Below, piece by piece: positions 6,848 to 58,549 of a stretch of 64,000 bases of DNA; the first letter of the stretch is position 1; each line of letters begins with the position of its first letter. The DNA is from an uncultured Ignavibacteria bacterium (GTDB lineage: Bacteria; Zixibacteria; MSB-5A5; UM-FILTER-46-8): assembly GCA_964563085.1 (NCBI GenBank), contig CAZLVS010000009.1, forward strand, positions 14,400 through 78,399, in the 5' to 3' direction. The notes below the pieces were generated by a model. It did no database searches. It saw only the letters and a list, made by a program, of their open reading frames with translations, and was not told where the DNA came from. The position numbers and the translations under genes were made by a program.

Positions 6848-7348
6848 TTAATCCAGCTTGAAATCGCCGTGTTTTTCGATATGCGCCACCAGTCCGCCAT
6901 CGTTTAGTATCTTTATCATTGCATCCGGAAGCGGCGAAAAGGTGAGTCGATCTCCGGTTGTCAGATTGTTGACCACTCCCTCGGACAGATCGACTGTCAA
7001 CTGATCACCGGCGCTGATTCTATCAGTATCGCACACCAGGACGGGAAGGCCAACATTAATGGCGTTGCGGAAAAATATGCGCGCAAATGATTTCGCCATC
7101 ACCGCGCCGACCCCCGCCAACTTAATGATAGTCGGCGCATGTTCTCTGGATGAACCCAGCCCGAAGTTGTTCCCGCCAACCACGAAATCGCCGGGTTGAA
7201 CATTTTTAGCGAAATCCGGATCGGCATCTTCCAAAACATGTTTTGCCAATTCAGGCAGATTACTTCTGAGATGGAATAACCTTCCGGGAGCGATATGATC
7301 GGTGGAAATATCATCGCCGAATTTATGTGCTTTACCTGTTATTTGCAT
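6848..7348 (-). CDS. leuD: 3-isopropylmalate dehydratase/homoaconitase small subunit (copy 1)
   Basis: GDDISTDHIAPG, NFGLGSSREHA, AKSFARIFFRNAINVG. Confidence 0.92.
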   Translation of the reverse strand: MQITGKAHKFGDDISTDHIAPGRLFHLRSNLPELAKHVLEDADPDFAKNVQPGDFVVGGNNFGLGSSREHAPTIIKLAGVGAVMAKSFARIFFRNAINVGLPVLVCDTDRISAGDQLTVDLSEGVVNNLTTGDRLTFSPLPDAMIKILNDGGLVAHIEKHGDFKLD

Positions 7349-7555: not shown

Positions 7556-9025
7556 CTACCGCTTTTTCTTAGCTGTTTTCTTCTTGGCTGCTTTTTTCTT
7601 GGCGGCCTTCTTCTTCGCCTTCTTAACCGCTTTCTTGGCGACTTTTTTCACAGCGCTTTTAGCTTTTTTCTTAGCCGCTTTTTGCTTGGTCGCCGCTGCT
7701 TTTTTGGCAGCTTTTGCTCTTGTGAGTTTCACCGGATCGGGGATCGTCCCCAACGGCTTAAGCGCCCGGCTGAACTCCCGGGGATCCGAAATATAGCCGG
7801 TCAAAGCGCTTGCCGCTACCGTAGCCGGAGATGCGAGATAGATATTCCCTTCGGGATTTCCCATACGACCCCTGAAATTACGGTTCTGAGTTGCGATTAC
7901 ATTTTCGCCATCGCCCAGGATTCCGCCATGAACTCCCACGCAGGGTCCGCATCCGGGAGGTAACATCAATGCGCCGAATTCCATCACGGTCTGCAGGTAA
8001 CCATGCTTCAATAACTCCGTTTCCACCTTTTTGGAACCGGGTACAGCTATGACTCGAACGCCAGGCGCAGGCTTTTTGCCCTTGACTATTCCCGCGAATA
8101 TCGCCCAGTCGGACAGGCGGGAGTTGGTGCAGGTGCCCAGAAAAACCTGATTAATCTTAACATTATCGGCAACCGCCTGTTCGATTTCCCGGGTATTATC
8201 CACTGTATGCGGGTAGGAAACGGTTGGTTTCAACTGGCGAACATCAATATCGATGATTTTCTCATAGTCGGCATCCGGATCGGGATAAATCTCCTGCCAC
8301 TTGCTGCCGCGTTTCCATTTCTTGAGGTAATCCCGGGTTATACTATCAGAAGCGATAAGCCCGGCTTTGGCGCCCGCTTCCACCGCCATATTCGACAGGG
8401 TGAACCGCCCTTCCATATCCATATTATCGATTGTCGGTCCGCCGAATTCCAGAGCCTTGTAGGTTGCGCCGTCCGCGCCGATCATACCGATCAAGTGCAG
8501 TATCAAATCCTTGGGATACACGCCTGTAGGGAATTTTCCGGTTACGTTTACTCGGTAAGTTTCAGGCACCCTGAGCCAGGTCTTCCCCAGCGCCATACCG
8601 ATAGCCACATCGGTGGAACCCATTCCGGTGGAAAACGCGCACAGCGCGCCTCCGGTGCAGGTATGCGAATCAGCGCCGATCAAGAGATCGCCCGGATTGA
8701 TATAATCCTCATTGATTACCGTGTGGCAGATACCGTTGCCGACATCTGAAAGATGCGCGCCGGTTTTGTCGGCGAACTGGCGTAATGTCATGTGGTCATT
8801 CGCCAGCTCCTTGCGCGATGCCGGAGCGGAATGGTCTAAAAACAGGACGGTTTTATCCGGATGAGCGACTTTCTCCAGGTTAAGTTTCTGAAGCTGTTTA
8901 ACCGCCAGCGGACCGGTGCCGTCCTGCACCAGTGCGGCGGTCACGTTAGCGATTACTATTTCGCCGGCGGATACTTCCTTACCGGCATTCATGCCAATTA
9001 TTATTTCAGCAAGGGTTTTACCCAT
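7556..9025 (-). CDS. leuC: 3-isopropylmalate dehydratase/homoaconitase large subunit (copy 1) with C-terminal histone H1-like tail
   Basis: LDH, GICH, GADSHT, LGTCTNSR and PGCGPC cluster ligands, TQNRNFRGRMG; last 53 aa are K/A-rich. Confidence 0.93.
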   Translation of the reverse strand: MGKTLAEIIIGMNAGKEVSAGEIVIANVTAALVQDGTGPLAVKQLQKLNLEKVAHPDKTVLFLDHSAPASRKELANDHMTLRQFADKTGAHLSDVGNGICHTVINEDYINPGDLLIGADSHTCTGGALCAFSTGMGSTDVAIGMALGKTWLRVPETYRVNVTGKFPTGVYPKDLILHLIGMIGADGATYKALEFGGPTIDNMDMEGRFTLSNMAVEAGAKAGLIASDSITRDYLKKWKRGSKWQEIYPDPDADYEKIIDIDVRQLKPTVSYPHTVDNTREIEQAVADNVKINQVFLGTCTNSRLSDWAIFAGIVKGKKPAPGVRVIAVPGSKKVETELLKHGYLQTVMEFGALMLPPGCGPCVGVHGGILGDGENVIATQNRNFRGRMGNPEGNIYLASPATVAASALTGYISDPREFSRALKPLGTIPDPVKLTRAKAAKKAAATKQKAAKKKAKSAVKKVAKKAVKKAKKKAAKKKAAKKKTAKKKR

Positions 9026-50156: not shown

Positions 50157-50654
50157 CTACTCTATCCCCAATCGTTTGCGCGTATATGGAATCAGTCCGC
50201 CGGCTTCGATTATACCCTGTGCCGATTCCGGCAGCGGCGGTATGGTAAACTCGCCTTTGGAAGTTGTTATAATGCCGTTAGCAAGATCAATCTTGATCTC
50301 GTCGCCGCTTTCCACAGCGTCTACCGCTTCTGCCGACGTAATTGGCGGTAATCCGAAATTCAGGCAGTTACGGAAGTAAAGCCGAGAAAATGATTTTGCG
50401 ATGATAGCTCCTACTCCGGCGTATTTCAGGCACGATGCCGCCTGCTCCCGGGATGAACCGCAGCCGAAATTCTTACCGCCGACCACCACATCGCCTTTGC
50501 TAACTTTACTTGAGAACTCAGGATCGAGATCCTCCATTGCATGTTTGGCGATCTCTTCGGGGTCGCTGACTGTGTAAGTATATTTTCCCGGGAAGATCAC
50601 ATCGGTGTTAATATCATCGCCGTATTTGAAAACTTTACCTTCTATTTTTGACAT
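50157..50654 (-). CDS. leuD: 3-isopropylmalate dehydratase/homoaconitase small subunit (copy 2)
   Basis: AAGGAG RBS; GDDINTDVIFPGKY, NFGCGSSREQA, AKSFSRLYFRN. Confidence 0.9.
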   Translation of the reverse strand: MSKIEGKVFKYGDDINTDVIFPGKYTYTVSDPEEIAKHAMEDLDPEFSSKVSKGDVVVGGKNFGCGSSREQAASCLKYAGVGAIIAKSFSRLYFRNCLNFGLPPITSAEAVDAVESGDEIKIDLANGIITTSKGEFTIPPLPESAQGIIEAGGLIPYTRKRLGIE

Positions 50655-50778
50655 TTTGGCTCCTTGGTCCGTTACATTTCGAAAGTTATCTTCACCAGTC
50701 ATTGCCCCGACTTCATTGGAAAATCGAAGCAATCCATATTCACATCGTAGATACTATGGTATAAAAGAGTAAAAAAGA

Positions 50779-50989
50779 GAAGGCTGCCATTTTAAATTAA
50801 GGAAAAAAATATTAACCACGTGGTCGCGATAGCGCCACAAATTTAATGGAGGCAGCCTTCATGAGAAAGATACAGGGTTACATACAGAAAGGCAAGCGGA
50901 TTTTTATCGGATTGGAAGCAGCCAAGCGGAATTGGAAACTATGCGTGCGCAGCGGCAAAATGACGGTGCATGAGGCAACATTGCCGGCC
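50779..50989 (+). mobile_element. IS110-family remnant: structured non-coding end plus first 43 codons of transposase
   Basis: ATG 50861 gives MRKIQGYIQKGKRIFIGLEAAKRNWKLCVRSGKMTVHEATLPA, resembling the RuvC-like N-terminus of IS110 transposases (recalled pattern); truncated by a REP cassette. Confidence 0.65.
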
Positions 50990-50990
50990 A

Positions 50991-51544
50991 GAGGGTTTAT
51001 TCCCCTGACACGGATTCTTCATCCCGCGGAATGCGGGATGAAGACGGCGCGTGTTATGTCATTGTGGTCGGTGAACGCCCCCGTCCGCCGACTGCATGGC
51101 ATGCTCAAATTTATTTGGGCATGTTTTGATTATATATGGTTACACATTGCTAGGGCTTCGCCTTGACCATGCCACCCTCCCGCATTTCATCCGTAGGTCG
51201 GGTTCCGAGCGAACGAAGTGATTGAGAAACCCGACACGCTTGCTGCACTGGTCATTGCGAGCGAAGCGAAGCAATCCGGCTCCATGTTTGTGCGTGACGG
51301 ACATCCCCGTTTGACGCCTTCGGTCAGACGGGGGCGTCTGCCCGCACCTGAATGTGCCTTCCCCCGATTTCATCAGGGTCACCCGCATATAATATTCGGA
51401 GCAGGTCGGGTTCCGAGCGAACGAAGTGATGGAGAAGCCCGGCACCAGTAAGCGCTCACGAGATTGTTTCAAAATCCAAATTTAAGGCATTGCTTGAGTA
51501 CAGGAGATTGCCGCGCCCTCGGAAAACCTCGGCCTCGCAATGAC
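50991..51544. repeat. Large mosaic REP cassette between leuC and leuD (copy 2)
   Basis: Contains modules shared with 6480-6770, 7371-7545, 13608-14054, 18018-18314 and 25790-26020. Confidence 0.87.
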
Positions 51545-51546
51545 CC

Positions 51547-52800
51547 TTATAAATACTCCCTCGGATCGGTGATCTCGCCTTTGAGAGCCGATGCCGCAAC
51601 CGATGCCGGTGATGCCAGATATATCTCAGCTTCCCGGCTGCCCATTCTGCCTTTGAAATTCCGATTAGCGGTTGAAATGACCACCTCATCCGGCGCGGGC
51701 ACACCCTGATGAGCGCCCAGACATGGTCCGCATCCGGAGTTGGTTATTATTCCCCCGGCTTCCATTATAGTCTGAGCGTACCCTGCTTTCATAGCGTCCA
51801 TATAGACTTTCCTGGATGCGGGTATGCAGATCATGCGGCAATCGGGATGTATTTTCCGTCCTTTCAAGATGGACGCAACCACCTGCCAATCCGACAGCCG
51901 CGAACCGTTACAAGTTCCCAAAAACGCCTGCTGAACTTTGGCGCCTACAACTTCACTTATCGGTTTGACGTTGTCAACCGTATGGGGACATGCAACTTGG
52001 GGTTCAAGCTCGGTTAGATCTATCTCGATATCTTTAGCATACTCGGCGTCGCTGTCAGGAAATACCGGCTGATAAGTCTGATTGCCCCGCAATGCCAGAT
52101 ACGAGAACGTTTTCTCATCAGGTTTCATATAACCGTTTTTAGCGCCCATCTCCACCGCAAGATTGGTAAACACCACACGATAATCCATAGAGAGTGAATC
52201 AAGATAAGGTCCTGAAAACTCTATCGAACGATAGATCCCCCCGTCAGCGCCAATCCTGCCTACTACGTGAAGCGCAACGTCTTTGGCAAATATTCCCTTG
52301 GGCGGCATTCCCAAAAGCAGCGCCCGCATCGATTCCGGGACACGGAACCATATCTTGCCCGTAGCCATTATCACAGCCATCTCCGAACGGCCGATTCCGG
52401 TGGCAAAGGCTCCGAAAGCCCCGTGATGGGTGGTATGCGAATCGCTGCCAACCACAACCATACCGGGCAGAACCATTCCCTCCTCAACCATCACCTGGTG
52501 GCAGATTCCGGCATTAACATCATAAAACTTTGTTATTCCCTGGTTTTTAGCAAATATCCTCACCGTCTTATGATTTTGCGCAAACTTCTCGTTGGCGGCA
52601 GGGGTGCAGTGATCCAGTATTATGACATGCAGATTCGGATCATAAACCTTGTCGACACCAATATCGTAAAAAGTTTTCGATATCGCGGCGGTGTTATCGT
52701 GCGACATGGCGAGGTCAGGCGTAATTTCTACGATCTCACCCGGCGCCACATCCTTGCCGACCCTCTTTGATAATATTTTCTCAGCAAAAGTAAGTCCCAT
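51547..52800 (-). CDS. leuC: 3-isopropylmalate dehydratase/homoaconitase large subunit (copy 2)
   Basis: SHDN, LDH, GICHQ, GSDSHT, LGTCNGSR, SGCGPC, TANRNFKGRMG; ends DPREYL without a tail. Confidence 0.92.
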   Translation of the reverse strand: MGLTFAEKILSKRVGKDVAPGEIVEITPDLAMSHDNTAAISKTFYDIGVDKVYDPNLHVIILDHCTPAANEKFAQNHKTVRIFAKNQGITKFYDVNAGICHQVMVEEGMVLPGMVVVGSDSHTTHHGAFGAFATGIGRSEMAVIMATGKIWFRVPESMRALLLGMPPKGIFAKDVALHVVGRIGADGGIYRSIEFSGPYLDSLSMDYRVVFTNLAVEMGAKNGYMKPDEKTFSYLALRGNQTYQPVFPDSDAEYAKDIEIDLTELEPQVACPHTVDNVKPISEVVGAKVQQAFLGTCNGSRLSDWQVVASILKGRKIHPDCRMICIPASRKVYMDAMKAGYAQTIMEAGGIITNSGCGPCLGAHQGVPAPDEVVISTANRNFKGRMGSREAEIYLASPASVAASALKGEITDPREYL

Positions 52801-53175
52801 GTTCGCCTCTATTTTTGTTTCAAATTTGTCAAGTAATCAAAATAAAGAAATCGTGTTAAGTGTCAACTATTAAAATTGAAACAATGACAGGAATCAAATT
52901 TCAATGCTATTTGCGATTAATGTTTAGCAATACTGTATATTATCTCAGAATCTTTGTAAAATTTGTTGACATGGACCAGTATGGAAATTAAACTACAAAA
53001 ATCAAAATAATTCAGGAAGTGATAACCCTAACTATGGGAGCTGGAATAGTCTTTGAATAGAAGTTACCTACGGTGATTAAATTCGCAGTGCGGTAACATT
53101 TCAGGCTTCCTGCTAAATGAGGGATAAAAATAGCGCCTGGCAAAGGGAAACTATTTCATTTCTGTGGAGGTAAAC

Positions 53176-53544
53176 ATGTATTCAAAAATAACCAGAATGA
53201 TACCGGGTATTTTAATCTGTGCGTTGTTTATTCACGGCGCGGCAGCTTTCGCCTGGGTAGGCGTGAAGGGAAAGGTAATCTATGCAAATTGCCAGTATAC
53301 GCCCCGTGATATGGTATCATTGTATTCCGGCGATAAGAAAACCTTAATCGCCTCAGGTCTTGTAGGTGGTTCTCTACCTCATACATACAATTTAATGTGC
53401 AGCCGGGACGGCGGCTGGTACTGGATTGAGTTCCGATCTCACGGTCGCGGAAGGGCAATATGGACGCATGTGTATTTGGATAATAATACTTTCGCCACCC
53501 AAAATATACATGTTGCGCACCATAATAAATCCGGAAAGAGATAA
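53176..53544 (+). CDS. Small secreted protein of unknown function
   Basis: GGAGGT RBS; signal peptide ending AAAFA; 122 aa. Confidence 0.65.
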   Translation: MYSKITRMIPGILICALFIHGAAAFAWVGVKGKVIYANCQYTPRDMVSLYSGDKKTLIASGLVGGSLPHTYNLMCSRDGGWYWIEFRSHGRGRAIWTHVYLDNNTFATQNIHVAHHNKSGKR

Positions 53545-53747: not shown

Positions 53748-55316
53748 CTATAACCGGGGGGCTTTTATGCAGCCGCCGAGCGCGGTCGCGGCTGCGACCT
53801 GATGATTGGCAAGGTAAACCCGATGAGGATAATCATCGGGGAATATGGTCAAAGCCGATGGATCGGTCACCATCACCCTCCCCATGTTACTATCTGTTTG
53901 AGGAAACACGAAATCTGTAAAATCGGGCGCCGGTGGTAAAAAGGAGCAGCCGGCGACCACCAATTTCCTGAATGTCCCTTCCTCTTCCAGTCGAAGCAGT
54001 ACATCCTTGGTTGCGGGACGGATCAGGACACGGATCCTGGGGGGGAGGTTTTGCTTTTTCAGGATATTGTCAACTTCCAAAATGTCATCATACATCCCTC
54101 CCGAATAATACCCGATTATTATAGTATCCACCCTCTCGTCTTCGTTGTCATTGAGCGATTCGATCGCTATTTTACCATCACGCTGAATTCCCAGCAAAGG
54201 ATCAATCTCCAAAACCGATTGGCTTATTGAATATGAATACACACAACCGACATCGGATTTCAAGGTATTAAATTTCATTACCGCCTTTTTTCTAAGCATT
54301 TTCGCTGTTTTTTTATCGCACTCCATGCAGACCGAAACGCAATCGAATAACCTGGCGAGGTAACATAGCACGAACCGTTTATCAAGAGGCAGGCTTTCAA
54401 CTGTATCGCCGCTTATTTCGATACTATGCGAACTGAAATCTTTCATTCTGGTTTTACCTTTGAGGAACAAAACGATATCGAGCGGCTGGATTCCTCTTAA
54501 CGGCGTATCCATCAGCACTATTCTGGATACATTGAACCTGGGAATTTTCACCTGGTCATTGCTGACGGAATCAATCAAACCGGTACCGTCCACGCGCAAT
54601 CCCAATGCCCCTACAGCCCCCGCGCTTATAACCGCCGGATCGCTGCCGAGTATCAGCTCGCCCGGTAGTATATAACCATTGTGTACCGCATCCAGTATCT
54701 GTCCGCCCTGCGAAGGATTGGATATATTCCACTTTTCACATAGCGAAGCCAGCTTTTCCTTATACTCTTCATTTATGGAATTGCCCGGATACAGCGCATA
54801 TATTTCGTTTGTATTTTTCTGTTTCGTGACCGATTTCGATTTGGAAAGCTCCAGAAAGCCGGAATCGAGATTGCTTATGAATATGCGATCCGGTTTTAAC
54901 GCCAACCGGTTTTCGCTTGAGTCATCGGCTGCCTTGTTCTGTAGAATCTTATCGATAATATTGCGACGCGTATCTTTCCCCATGAACTCCTTGATGCCGG
55001 GAAGCGGAAGCTGCATCTGTTCCAGTTTCAACCTCTCCGGTTTCTCGGCTATCCCATACTTCTTACGCCAATAACGGAATGCATTGCCGCTAATCCCCAG
55101 CGCCTCGCCGCCTAATTTATCATTACCGAAACGTTCCCACACCTCGGTGATTTGTGATTGGCTGTATTTCGGTTCGGAATAAGCGGGAATGCCCTTTTTA
55201 CGCCTCCAATAAGCGATAAGGTATGGTTCCACCCCTCCTAATACTTCCCCTATTTTCTTATCAGTCTTATATCGTCTCTGAAGTTCTAACAGCTCTTTTT
55301 TGGATGGCATCTTCAT
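53748..55316 (-). CDS. Tandem-HTH protein fused to a catalytically dead LeuC/aconitase large-subunit fold
   Basis: Two ~40-aa HTH-like repeats ending YWRRKKGI and YWRKKYGI; C-terminal part collinear with LeuC but DSHT>DPAV, GTC>GYY, GCGPC>APDF. Confidence 0.8.
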   Translation of the reverse strand: MKMPSKKELLELQRRYKTDKKIGEVLGGVEPYLIAYWRRKKGIPAYSEPKYSQSQITEVWERFGNDKLGGEALGISGNAFRYWRKKYGIAEKPERLKLEQMQLPLPGIKEFMGKDTRRNIIDKILQNKAADDSSENRLALKPDRIFISNLDSGFLELSKSKSVTKQKNTNEIYALYPGNSINEEYKEKLASLCEKWNISNPSQGGQILDAVHNGYILPGELILGSDPAVISAGAVGALGLRVDGTGLIDSVSNDQVKIPRFNVSRIVLMDTPLRGIQPLDIVLFLKGKTRMKDFSSHSIEISGDTVESLPLDKRFVLCYLARLFDCVSVCMECDKKTAKMLRKKAVMKFNTLKSDVGCVYSYSISQSVLEIDPLLGIQRDGKIAIESLNDNEDERVDTIIIGYYSGGMYDDILEVDNILKKQNLPPRIRVLIRPATKDVLLRLEEEGTFRKLVVAGCSFLPPAPDFTDFVFPQTDSNMGRVMVTDPSALTIFPDDYPHRVYLANHQVAAATALGGCIKAPRL

Positions 55317-55825
55317 CTGGAATTTGCCCTGTTTTTTTCCTTCTTGTAACGGTCAAACTCCGGCTTTAATCTTTCGTATATTATATTCAGGCCAACGGAT
55401 TGAAGCTTGGTTTTTCCCACAACCGGCAAAAAATTCGTATCTCCGTTGAAACGGGGTACTATATGATAATGAAGGTGATACTCTATACCGGCGCCCGCCA
55501 CCGCACCGATATTCATCCCGATATTTAATCCGTGAGGTTTAAACTTCTTTTTCAGCAGCTTTACCGACAGCACCACCAACTCTATCATCTCGGCATGTTC
55601 ATCCTCGGTCAGGCTTTCTATATGTTTCAAATGCCGATAAGGCACCACCAAAAGATGACCGGGATTATAAGGATAGAGATTAATTATAACAAATGAATAC
55701 TCTCCATTGTAGAGAATCAAATTCTGCTGCTGCTTTTTCTGCCTCCCCTTTTTACAAAATACGCAGTATTCTTCCTTCTTGCCAAGCACGAAATCACTGC
55801 GCCATTCTGCCCATAGGTCTTCCAT
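55313..55825 (-). CDS. HIT-family hydrolase (Ap4A phosphorylase/Rv2613c-like)
   Basis: LWAEWR, CVFC, NLYPYNPGHLLVVP, HLHYHIVPR. Confidence 0.9.
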   Translation of the reverse strand: MEDLWAEWRSDFVLGKKEEYCVFCKKGRQKKQQQNLILYNGEYSFVIINLYPYNPGHLLVVPYRHLKHIESLTEDEHAEMIELVVLSVKLLKKKFKPHGLNIGMNIGAVAGAGIEYHLHYHIVPRFNGDTNFLPVVGKTKLQSVGLNIIYERLKPEFDRYKKEKNRANSR

Positions 55826-55989
55826 ATCTTACCTCGGTTGCTATAATAATTATTCGCATTCGGATATGCAAATATAAATATTGCAATGTATAATCCCAAT
55901 ACCTGTACTTTTCTCACCAATTCTCTTGATTCCCGATTAACTTAACAGTATTTTTTCTTCAACCGAACTCGAAAATAAGGAATAATCTG

Positions 55990-56605: not shown

Positions 56606-58549
56606 CTATTTGATCAGAATAAGTTTTTTCTGCGCGGAATATCCGCTCGTTTCCAAACGGTAGAAATACATACCTGATGCTGCTTCTTTACCGTCATTGT
56701 TTGTTCCATCCCATACAACTTGATTTGTTTTATCGAGATTAAATAGTCTGACCAGCTTACCGTTTAAATCGAATATACTCAGAGTAGCCCGTTTGTTTGC
56801 TGCAAATGGGATTATTGTGCGCCTGTTAAAGGGGTTCGGGTAATTCTGATAAAGGATAACTCTATCCGGTTTAATCGACTCCTCTTCGATGCCGGTCGGC
56901 GCTGCCTCCCTCGCCAGCGCTGTCAAATTGGGATTAAACGCGATTTGATCGGGATTAAACGGAATCTCAACTACCGATTCCTGGTTCCTCTCGTTAACGA
57001 AAATCCTCACGTTTTGTTCAGCATCATCGTGATAGACAGCAAAATCAAGGAACATCTCGTAATCGATCTCCTGCTGATGCTGAGTCGATGTTATAAGCAG
57101 TTCGAAACCTGCGTGACTGGCATAAACTTCATAATCGAAGCTGAACTTAGGATATCCGGCGGTATAAACCCATTGCTGGAAAAACTGGCTCAAATCCTGG
57201 CCGGTTTCCCTCTCCCATATCTCCTGAAAGTCATCGGTTGACGCGTTTCCATAGGCGAACTCCTCGGCATATAACCTCATAATCCGGAAGAACTCATCCT
57301 CTCCGAACCAGCTCTGAAGCATCCTCAGGACAAAAGCGCCCTTCCAGTAGCAGGCCGCGCCGAAAACATACGGAGGATCATAGATAGGGTAGGTGTAAAC
57401 GCTGTCGTTCTCGTAGAAGAACGCATTCATAATTCCGTTTAGTTTCTGCTGAAACATCTCCTCGCCATAGAAATCACCGAACCATAAGATACTGGAGAAA
57501 GTTGCGAATCCCTCATTCAGCCATATATTGCGAAAATCGGCTAAGGTGACATAATCTCCCCACCATTGATGCGCCAATTCATGCACAATTCCCCCTTCCA
57601 CACCTCGGTCGCCCCGCACCCAATCCCGGTGAATAGTGCTGATGGATTGATGCTCCATCCCGCCATACCGGAAGTTGGAAGCCTGCACCATACCGTATTT
57701 ATCGAAAGGATAATCGGCGAATTTTTCTATGAAGAAGCTGATCATGGAAGGAACATTAGCGAAATCATAAACAGAGTTAGCGGAGTCCTCGGGATATACA
57801 TAATAGTATAGGGGAATGGAATCGCCGTATCCATTGGAAGCGTAATCCATCCAGAGTATATATTCGCCAACCGTTATCGCCATCAGATAAGTAGCGATCG
57901 GATTCTCCTCTTTCCAATGGTATGTGACAGAATTCTGTTGGGGATTCTCATAAATACCTATAAGCATACCGTTGGAAACCGCTGTAAGAGTATCCGGTAT
58001 GGTTACTTGCGCTTCGAATTCAACCTTATCCCGGGGCTCATCGAAACATGGAATCCAGTAACGGGCATCGTACGGTTCGCTCATGGTGTATGCGCAGCTG
58101 TCGAAAAAGTAGAAACCGAGCTGATCCTCGCCTCCACTCTGACCGCTGTAATGAATGTCGAACCAAAACGTATCCCCCGGTTCGAAATATTGACCTATAT
58201 CCACAATTACCGTTGAATCGCCGATTTCGAAGTCAAGGTTTTCATCGACCATTTTGACCGAATCGATATCCAATTCACGACTATGCAGCTCAATTTGGGA
58301 TGTATTTTCCTCGACGACGCTGCCGGTCACCCGATTGAAGCCTGAAAAATTAGCCTCATCCGGATTAACCTCGAGATGCAATTCGTAGCTTATAGCATCG
58401 TATGAATGGGTTGAATCCGAAGCGGGCGAAGGGTAAAACAAACTTTGGCCGCTGCGTTTTAACTGCGGATAATCCGGAGTGTGCCCCTGCCCGATTACTG
58501 AAGTTGTCAGAAGGACAATTGGAAGGAGTATTTTAATCAATTGCTGCAT
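56606..58549 (-). CDS. Secreted M1-family aminopeptidase with CTD
   Basis: GGMEH, HELAHQWWG, WLNEGFA, YWKGA; PNPFN...ASGMYFYRL...KKLILIK. Confidence 0.92.
   Translation of the reverse strand: MQQLIKILLPIVLLTTSVIGQGHTPDYPQLKRSGQSLFYPSPASDSTHSYDAISYELHLEVNPDEANFSGFNRVTGSVVEENTSQIELHSRELDIDSVKMVDENLDFEIGDSTVIVDIGQYFEPGDTFWFDIHYSGQSGGEDQLGFYFFDSCAYTMSEPYDARYWIPCFDEPRDKVEFEAQVTIPDTLTAVSNGMLIGIYENPQQNSVTYHWKEENPIATYLMAITVGEYILWMDYASNGYGDSIPLYYYVYPEDSANSVYDFANVPSMISFFIEKFADYPFDKYGMVQASNFRYGGMEHQSISTIHRDWVRGDRGVEGGIVHELAHQWWGDYVTLADFRNIWLNEGFATFSSILWFGDFYGEEMFQQKLNGIMNAFFYENDSVYTYPIYDPPYVFGAACYWKGAFVLRMLQSWFGEDEFFRIMRLYAEEFAYGNASTDDFQEIWERETGQDLSQFFQQWVYTAGYPKFSFDYEVYASHAGFELLITSTQHQQEIDYEMFLDFAVYHDDAEQNVRIFVNERNQESVVEIPFNPDQIAFNPNLTALAREAAPTGIEEESIKPDRVILYQNYPNPFNRRTIIPFAANKRATLSIFDLNGKLVRLFNLDKTNQVVWDGTNNDGKEAASGMYFYRLETSGYSAQKKLILIK

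Follow-up and report, generated by a model that had tools for sequence, protein, structure and literature searches.

Within a window of 64,000 nucleotides (nt) from an uncultured Ignavibacteria bacterium assigned by GTDB to the Zixibacteria (contig CAZLVS010000009.1), the gene at 53748..55316 on the minus strand, an open reading frame (ORF) of 522 amino acids (aa) hereafter referred to as X, encodes a tandem helix-turn-helix (HTH) head joined to a LeuC-like aconitase fold that has lost its cluster ligands and nearly all of its catalytic residues. X belongs to a family conserved at 25-50% identity and held under purifying selection, in which intact and degenerate forms both survive and in which a gene of the HIT family is the constant upstream neighbour. 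With a probability of roughly 0.5, we consider X to be a DNA-binding protein that derives from an HTH-bearing LeuC enzyme, in which the former enzyme body serves as a scaffold or partner module and which is functionally tied to the HIT protein. An earlier reading of this DNA, made from the letters alone (the sequence-only reading), had proposed X as a candidate metabolite-sensing transcription factor.

Architecture of X and loss of the catalytic residues

The C-terminal part of X, residues 120-522 (53751..54959, minus strand), is a LeuC/HacA-type aconitase-fold body without cluster ligands, as judged from Pfam, NCBIfam and Foldseek matches. Residues ~120-522 match the Pfam Aconitase family (PF00330) with an E value of 4.6e-19, and the scores against the NCBIfam LeuC/HacA models lie far below both cut-offs (PRK00402, 120.9 bits against a cut-off of 385; TIGR02086, 110.1 bits against 410). 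The body is 21% identical to the neighbouring LeuC2. A full-length AlphaFold2 model, built on a 29-sequence alignment, has a mean predicted local distance difference test score (pLDDT) of 85.9 and comprises two three-helix bundles, a short helix, a tether and an alpha/beta body. This model superposes on the large subunit of M. jannaschii isopropylmalate isomerase (MJ0499, structure 4kp1) with a Foldseek E value of 9e-34 and a template modelling (TM) score of 0.84 on the target; structures 3snp and 6vcd are also among its matches. X covers the large-subunit part alone (domains 1-3), domain 4, or LeuD, not being part of it.

Aligned to the LeuC2 of the window as a reference, X retains one of 12 key residues and has lost the other 11. 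None of the three Cys ligands of the [4Fe-4S] cluster is left: C297 is replaced by Tyr404, and C357 and C360 correspond to a Cys-free remodelled loop, PPAPDFTDFVF, within which their residue-level match varies by alignment. Among the nine catalytic and substrate-binding residues (His-Asp, His, Asp-Ser-His, Asn-Arg and Arg), the single survivor is the Asp of DSHT, a motif that reads DPAV in X; the His-Asp of SHDN, the His of ICHQV and the Asn-Arg...Arg of NRNFxGR are gone. No LeuD gene adjoins X, nor is there a third LeuD-like gene within the window. X thus fails every test of membership among functional LeuC proteins, whether Cys ligands, catalytic residues, family cut-offs or a LeuD partner.

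The N-terminal head consists of two modules. HTH module 1 spans residues 4-43 (55188..55307, minus strand; coordinates confirmed by translation), with helices at residues 6-16, 19-25 and 31-40, a pLDDT of about 90 and the recognition helix YLIAYWRRKKGI. HTH module 2 spans residues 51-89 (55050..55166, minus strand), with helices at residues 53-63, 66-72 (or 73) and 77-86 and the recognition helix NAFRYWRKKYGI. The two are the product of an internal duplication, as their local alignment score of 68 was reached in none of 2000 shuffles (21.3 +/- 4.5). They are followed by a linker helix, residues 93-103 (55008..55040, minus strand; P-x-x-LKLEQ-x-x-L), in which P93, L96, K97 and Q100 are nearly invariant family-wide. 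AlphaFold2 predicts this helix at residues 94-101 and, after it, a disordered tether up to residue ~114, with a pLDDT below 50 at residues 101-114. The head is basic, with an isoelectric point (pI) of 9.8 versus 5.8 for the body.

Several lines of evidence bear on the type of this head. Sub-threshold Pfam matches to HTH_Tnp_1 were obtained in 14 of 15 family members and to HTH_23 in 12 of 15, with HTH_28 and P22_Cro in others; the HTH_Tnp_1 match of the window protein lies at residues 71-102, in and after module 2, and the best family member reaches an E value of 2.4e-5 on a Pfam HTH model. A profile of the head finds HTH-repeat proteins beyond the fused family, with E values from 1e-34 to 1e-7. 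These relatives lie far above the HTH_23 cut-off and co-occur with archaeal TFB (TFIIB), Xre-type HTH and ResIII-helicase domains; P0070, for example, matches the head profile at 3e-34 and scores 97 bits on Pfam HTH_23 (cut-off 24.6). A search of PDB sequences with the same profile gave nothing significant, the best hit being an unrelated lipoprotein (E 0.023) and P22 Cro appearing at E 0.67. Modelled alone, the head adopts the same two helix triplets (AlphaFold2, pLDDT 87), and its top structural neighbours in Foldseek are all DNA-binding HTHs, namely the bipartite head of the Mos1 transposase (5hoo), Fis, the NtrC1 DNA-binding domain and Cro. The third, or recognition, helices are basic and carry an invariant W-R-R/K-K (WRRKK, WRKKY). 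The head is thus predicted to form three-helix bundles with a basic recognition helix and is linked by homology to accepted HTH members; we infer that it binds DNA, a function that the sequence comparisons and the model make well motivated.

The sequence-only reading had described X as a tandem of HTH-like repeats on a cluster-free, dead aconitase related to LeuC, with all three Cys and the DSHT motif lost. Since one of 12 key residues remains after alignment to LeuC2, the description was correct, the Asp of DSHT being the one exception; the HTH-like nature of the repeats is likewise borne out by the sub-threshold Pfam matches, the profile link to HTH_23 and the predicted three-helix bundles, and the overall architecture by Pfam and NCBIfam, AlphaFold2, Foldseek and the lost residues.

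The HTH module of ~45 aa is of a widespread type that also occurs as arrays of two to eight or more tandem copies in uncharacterised proteins of many lineages (P0053, P0070, P0074, P0076, P0077, P0079, P0084, P0103, P0134 and P0151). Among these proteins, an archaeal TFB bears about nine copies at its C-terminus, and a ResIII helicase also has copies. Proteins with such arrays appear to be unstudied.

Intact and degenerate relatives and their HIT neighbour

The survey of homologues and synteny that the sequence-only reading had proposed uncovered a widespread, conserved family. A database search returned 44 clusters of like length (about 495-577 aa) with the same N-terminal extension as X, a head-only profile recovered 412 proteins among 1.8 billion cluster representatives, and a scan of one genome per species gave at least 218 head-encoding loci. 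The labels of the best 80 loci are almost all Zixibacteria, with some Ignavibacteria(les), Calditrichota, GN15 and FCB group. The closest relative, L011 (Zixiibacteriota Bin_336), has a head 98% identical to that of the window protein. In public annotations, family members are labelled isopropylmalate dehydratase large subunit (LeuC) or hypothetical protein, and some annotated starts clip the first HTH module, so that a correction is called for. The deposited proteins P0005 (L002 7073) and P0006 (L003 7920) start 25-27 codons too far downstream and have much of this module cut; because the full head is present in frame upstream, beginning at or beside the HIT stop codon, these short N-termini are start-codon miscalls.

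The 12 key residues were scored in every complete locus and in the protein clusters. All 12 are kept only in loci L001, L004, L009/L010 and L088 and in clusters P0008, P0009, P0013-P0019 and P0022-P0027, and these intact members carry DSHT, GSCTNGR, GCGPCLG and NRNFxGRMG unbroken. All remaining members keep zero to six of the 12, in many different patterns, that of the window protein being SNIDPAYPTPSF. L062 and L089 are intermediates with the pattern TGNESHCCCDGG, in which the three Cys and the Ser-His are kept and the substrate-binding Asn and Arg are lost; such proteins might hold an Fe-S cluster without catalysis.

The small subunit follows the same division. An intact leuD (GCGSSREQA kept) lies downstream of every intact member with enough flanking DNA, and of intact members only; it is adjacent in four loci and separated by one ferredoxin-like gene in L091. 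Among degenerate members, a LeuD-like gene is found directly downstream only in the early-branching pair L021 (5578-6069) and L034 (2861-3352), both on the plus strand. In six others the LeuD-like gene lies upstream at a distance of 1.6-3 kb, on the strand opposite to X, in each case the minus strand (L015 1886-2371, L033 1059-1544, L072 330-824, L050 1856-2272, L065 1994-2254 and L045 1893-2168). GSSRE is destroyed in all eight of these genes near degenerate members (GRISE, GEDPE, NSSLE and others), and their products look like pseudo-LeuD subunits whose degeneration accompanied that of the pseudo-LeuC.

A neighbour-joining (NJ) tree was computed from the body with LeuC2 as root. Its first branch is the intact clade, and the degenerate members all fall into a single clade, the group of the window protein lying on one of the longest branches. 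Read most simply, this tree suggests one event in which catalysis disappeared, after which the lineages drifted independently.

Selection was assessed from the ratio of nonsynonymous to synonymous substitution rates (dN/dS, or omega; Nei-Gojobori estimates on close pairs). In degenerate pairs, omega is 0.00-0.03 for the HTH head and 0.05-0.15 for the pseudo-LeuC body; between the window protein and L011 the values are 0.012 and 0.129, respectively. With an omega of 0.05-0.15 the body is not decaying, which disposes of the possibility, named by the sequence-only reading as one that would undo its proposal, that the C-terminal part is merely in decay. Head identity in degenerate pairs is 97-100% versus 71-94% for the body, whereas the intact clade shows no such advantage of the head over the body (0.82 vs 0.84; 0.67 vs 0.74). 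Moreover, at comparable dS, the intact pair L009/L088 has a head dN ~10 times that of degenerate pairs. On these sequence comparisons, constraint on the head grew tighter after the loss of catalysis.

Among 62 non-redundant degenerate members, the most common residue of a column has a mean frequency of 0.84 over the head and 0.51 over the body, and the 12 former active-site columns rank at percentiles 0.57-0.99 of the domain (1 = least conserved). Where the body is conserved, the residues are for the most part Gly, Pro, Asp and Glu that canonical LeuC also has, an indication that the fold is being maintained. The poor conservation of the old active-site columns, on the other hand, is evidence against a carboxylate-sensing pocket shared by the family. 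In the subclade of the window protein (seven sequences, mean identity 48%), the rebuilt loops are nevertheless kept above the domain average of 0.61, G-Y/F-Y-S-G-G-M at 0.83 and D-P...P at 0.74. Each clade seems to have settled on a solution of its own, which could be a site peculiar to that clade or a hydrophobic plug filling the former cluster cavity.

Directly upstream of X lies a HIT-family gene (55313..55825, minus strand; 170 aa; Pfam HIT E 6.7e-18) with an intact HxHxHxx motif. Its product is closest to HIT proteins of the ATP adenylyltransferase/Ap4A (diadenosine tetraphosphate)-phosphorylase type (NCBIfam NF052622, 134.7 bits, below cut-off). Read directly in the window, the HIT stop codon overlaps the X start codon as ATGA. 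Of 84 complete related loci, 78 have a HIT gene in this position, usually overlapping the X gene or 14 nt away from it, and because they have the same upstream HIT gene, intact and degenerate forms are positional orthologues. As X appears to be co-transcribed and translationally coupled with the HIT gene, their shared operon is the probable unit of function. PADLOC gave no defence-system match for X or for the intact relative P0008, and only a generic HIT-family (ThsC) match for the HIT protein.

HIT is the only constant neighbour of X. The remaining recurrent neighbours differ by clade and include DNA methylase, SbcCD-like genes, Metallophos, GNAT, redoxin, DUF885 and RmuC; SbcD/SbcC-like genes, where present, are found just upstream of HIT. 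A type II-like N6/N4 DNA methyltransferase gene is divergent from the HIT-X operon in 32 of 73 related loci (e.g., L082 2354-3325, minus strand).

A putative HIT-X promoter, recognised by its match to the consensus alone, is located at 55843..55872 (minus strand; -35 TTTGCA, 18-nt spacer, -10 TATTAT). The closest relatives have the same TTTGC(A/G) ~46 nt before the HIT start together with a TATTAT-like box. The 200 nt before the HIT start were searched for operators in 78 loci, by eye and with a TTGC enrichment test. A second TTGC copy was considered as an operator and discarded, being present in few sequences and too weak. A repeat scan of the HIT-X upstream region and of the spacer between X and leuC2 returned only short repeats at chance level, and Rfam gave no matches over the window.

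The sequence-only reading overlooked the translationally coupled HIT gene. It placed X ~950 nt upstream of the co-oriented pair leuC2-leuD2 (leuC2 51547..52800, leuD2 50157..50732, both on the minus strand), which is accurate (947 nt, 53748 vs 52800), and regarded this pair as a plausible target. That link did not hold up in the comparison: no further leuC occurs within 4 kb in any of ~80 related loci, so the proximity is not conserved, and there is no leucine-pathway gene among the recurrent neighbours of the X loci. An origin of leuC2-leuD2 by tandem duplication with X was rejected along with its role as a target, given that related loci have no leuC nearby and that the LeuD partner apparently co-degenerated elsewhere.

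Proposed function, alternatives and related systems

In the model we favour, the ancestor was a LeuC-type large subunit of an isopropylmalate/homoaconitate isomerase that gained an N-terminal HTH pair and worked with LeuD. It would have been an enzyme also able to bind DNA, a state still found in a single clade of Zixibacteria. As far as a rough tree can tell, there was apparently one loss of catalysis, after which cluster ligands and substrate-binding residues would have drifted lineage by lineage and the head would have come under much tighter constraint. The two basic HTH modules most likely touch two adjacent DNA half-sites, like the paired-like heads of Tc1/mariner transposases, and are connected by the linker helix and flexible tether to the acidic pseudo-LeuC body. 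This body, retained as a folded scaffold, probably mediates oligomerisation or partner binding and could thereby modulate DNA binding. The partner in question may be the HIT protein translated along with X, a subunit resembling LeuD, or a ligand peculiar to the clade and bound at the rebuilt cluster site. HIT, a nucleotide hydrolase or transferase, and X are proposed to be co-transcribed and translationally coupled, and their operon is a candidate target of autoregulation by X, which would then act as a regulator.

Several observations weigh against this model. The head of the window protein scores below every Pfam gathering threshold (HTH_Tnp_1, 15.3 bits vs 24.1), and its Foldseek matches are non-significant, the best being Mos1 with a probability of 0.89 and an E value of 0.06, and none having an E value below 0.001. 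The operator search upstream of HIT found no operator or other DNA target, the promoter-like -35 and -10 elements being all that is conserved there. HIT adjacency could also be an inherited operon structure without physical or regulatory coupling. The body tree is a simple NJ tree and exposed to long-branch effects. Finally, the rebuilt former cluster loops of the window subclade may form a clade-specific ligand site.

The proposal of the sequence-only reading, in which the dead pocket binds isopropylmalate, homocitrate or citrate and X controls the leuCD genes 947 nt downstream, is in our view unlikely. An HTH head joined to an aconitase fold is what such a sensor would look like, and with a LeuC enzyme as ancestor a leucine-pathway link is historically plausible; X is, moreover, co-oriented with leuC2-leuD2, and the rebuilt loops are kept above average in its subclade. 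However, all the Arg, Asn, His and Ser residues that bind carboxylates in aconitase-family enzymes are gone from X, and pocket columns that are the most variable of the domain are hard to fit with one ligand and a nearly invariant head. A conserved pocket is therefore unsupported, and the isolation of the ~80 related loci from leuC and the leucine pathway argues further against this control. Just as doubtful is the view that X, rather than being a gene-specific regulator, works with HIT on DNA in an architectural or DNA-transaction capacity, for instance in the processing of adenylated DNA ends or in organising the nucleoid, with the body as a bulky scaffold. Some HIT proteins, such as aprataxin, act on DNA. 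The HIT protein encoded upstream of X is nearest to Ap4A-phosphorylase and Hint types, not to aprataxin, and the DNA-related neighbours that would suit this role (SbcD/SbcC-like, RmuC and, in 32 of 73 loci, DNA methylase) differ between clades, HIT alone being constant. The extreme conservation of the head across the phylum, the presence of a single HIT-linked locus per genome examined and the translational coupling to HIT would all be accounted for, though a repair role in particular stays hypothetical.

Still less probable is that the N-terminal repeats are a protein- or RNA-binding adaptor tethering the LeuC-like body to another machine. The HTH assignment does come from sub-threshold Pfam matches, a transitive profile link and predicted structure, and no DNA site was found; yet the recognition helix has an invariant basic W-R-R/K-K in a head of pI 9.8, proteins linked to the head by profile combine HTH_23 with TFIIB, Xre and helicase domains, and every structural neighbour of the head is a DNA binder. 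We see very little chance that X is still an enzyme with a new, cluster-independent chemistry in the rebuilt pocket: no new invariant polar constellation is seen, the invariant body residues being Gly, Pro, Asp and Glu as in canonical LeuC, and the pocket columns, least conserved family-wide, vary between clades, although the purifying selection on the body and the clade-specific conservation of its rebuilt loops would fit. Hardly credible is the idea that X is what remains of a duplicated leuC on its way to becoming a pseudogene. The loss of every catalytic motif and the 21% identity to the neighbouring LeuC would suit it, but full-length ORFs are intact in relatives as distant as 25% identity, the arrangement of the operon is conserved, and the dN/dS values (body 0.05-0.15, head at most 0.03) contradict it.

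A bolder extension of the DNA-binding model, which we regard as possible rather than probable, is that X represents the first aconitase-superfamily lineage turned DNA-binding regulator, with the transition visible in living genomes. The steps would lead from a DNA-binding Fe-S enzyme (HTH-LeuC with LeuD) through three-Cys intermediates without the substrate residues to pseudoenzymes, some with a pseudo-LeuD. In the boldest version, a switch of the Ap4A type, the HIT protein would bind the pseudo-LeuC body and release or activate the HTH head in response to Ap4A-type nucleotides. HINT1-MITF is a eukaryotic switch, and the X-HIT pair would be its bacterial counterpart.

Among known systems, the LeuC/HacA large subunit (PF00330, PRK00402, 4kp1) shares the fold and a recognisable homology with X, and the intact relatives of X keep all its motifs and LeuD. 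Unlike these proteins, X has no Cys ligands, one of 12 key residues and no adjacent LeuD, and it bears a tandem-HTH head of ~105 aa. Trigger enzymes with a fused DNA-binding domain, such as PutA, BirA and NadR, have been reviewed as a concept (PMC6978683). They combine an enzyme and a DNA-binding module in one polypeptide, and the intact HTH-LeuC/LeuD relatives (the P0008-P0027 clusters, L001, L004, L009 and L088), which fit this description on sequence grounds, may qualify as such. Because its enzyme half is lost, X is at most the descendant of a trigger enzyme. We know of no aconitase-family trigger enzyme with a DNA-binding domain, and literature searches found none.

The aconitase family also includes RNA-binding regulators, namely IRP1, the non-catalytic IRP2 and the bacterial CitB, AcnA and AcnB. 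IRP2, a catalytically dead aconitase acting purely as a regulator, is a precedent for X. Proteins of the IRP type are, however, four-domain aconitases that clamp RNA stem-loops with domains 3 and 4 and have no HTH, whereas X has three domains and a DNA-type HTH head. In NrtR (with a Nudix domain), ROK repressors and MocR/GabR, an HTH is fused to a non-catalytic enzyme fold whose active site is kept as a ligand pocket. The effector pocket is conserved in such regulators, a hallmark that the X family lacks as a whole, its old active-site columns being the most variable. The heads of Tc1/mariner and IS630/IS3 transposases (HTH_23, HTH_28, HTH_Tnp_1; Mos1) likewise consist of two tandem three-helix HTHs with a short linker; in contrast to transposases, X has no transposase catalytic domain, and the matches of the window protein to these heads are all sub-threshold or non-significant.

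Enzymes that double as regulators and regulators that arose from dead enzymes are known, and X would be a pseudoenzyme-based regulator of this general kind with an undescribed architecture. No description of an HTH-aconitase or HTH-LeuC fusion, or of any aconitase or LeuC with a DNA-binding head, was found in the literature and curated family libraries searched, which agrees with the novelty claimed by the sequence-only reading. Apparently active and dead forms both survive in an uncultured phylum, and the small subunit that goes with each is correspondingly intact or dead. They offer a rare natural series for the conversion of a metabolic enzyme into a DNA-binding protein, and raise the question of what purpose a pseudoenzyme body serves once its pocket drifts.

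Other features of the window

The window contains a second canonical pair, LeuC1 (7556..9025) and LeuD1 (6848..7348), both on the minus strand and 46% and 45% identical to the copy 2 proteins, respectively; the LeuC1 ORF has about 70 additional C-terminal residues. In the canonical LeuCD-type copy 2, leuC2 and leuD2 are separated by ~800 nt (50733-51546) holding a 43-nt direct repeat (51195-51237 and 51403-51445, 93% identical, 208 nt apart) and an ORF without a family match (50846..51166, plus strand). This spacer looks like an insertion remnant within a leuCD operon; identification of its ORF as an IS110 transposase fragment was dropped for want of Pfam support. Between X and leuC2 lies a candidate ORF of 126 aa (53164..53544, plus strand) with a signal-peptide-like N-terminus and no family match. 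The gene at 56606..58549 (minus strand) encodes an M1 peptidase with a type IX secretion C-terminal sorting domain, which fits an origin from the FCB group (Zixibacteria).

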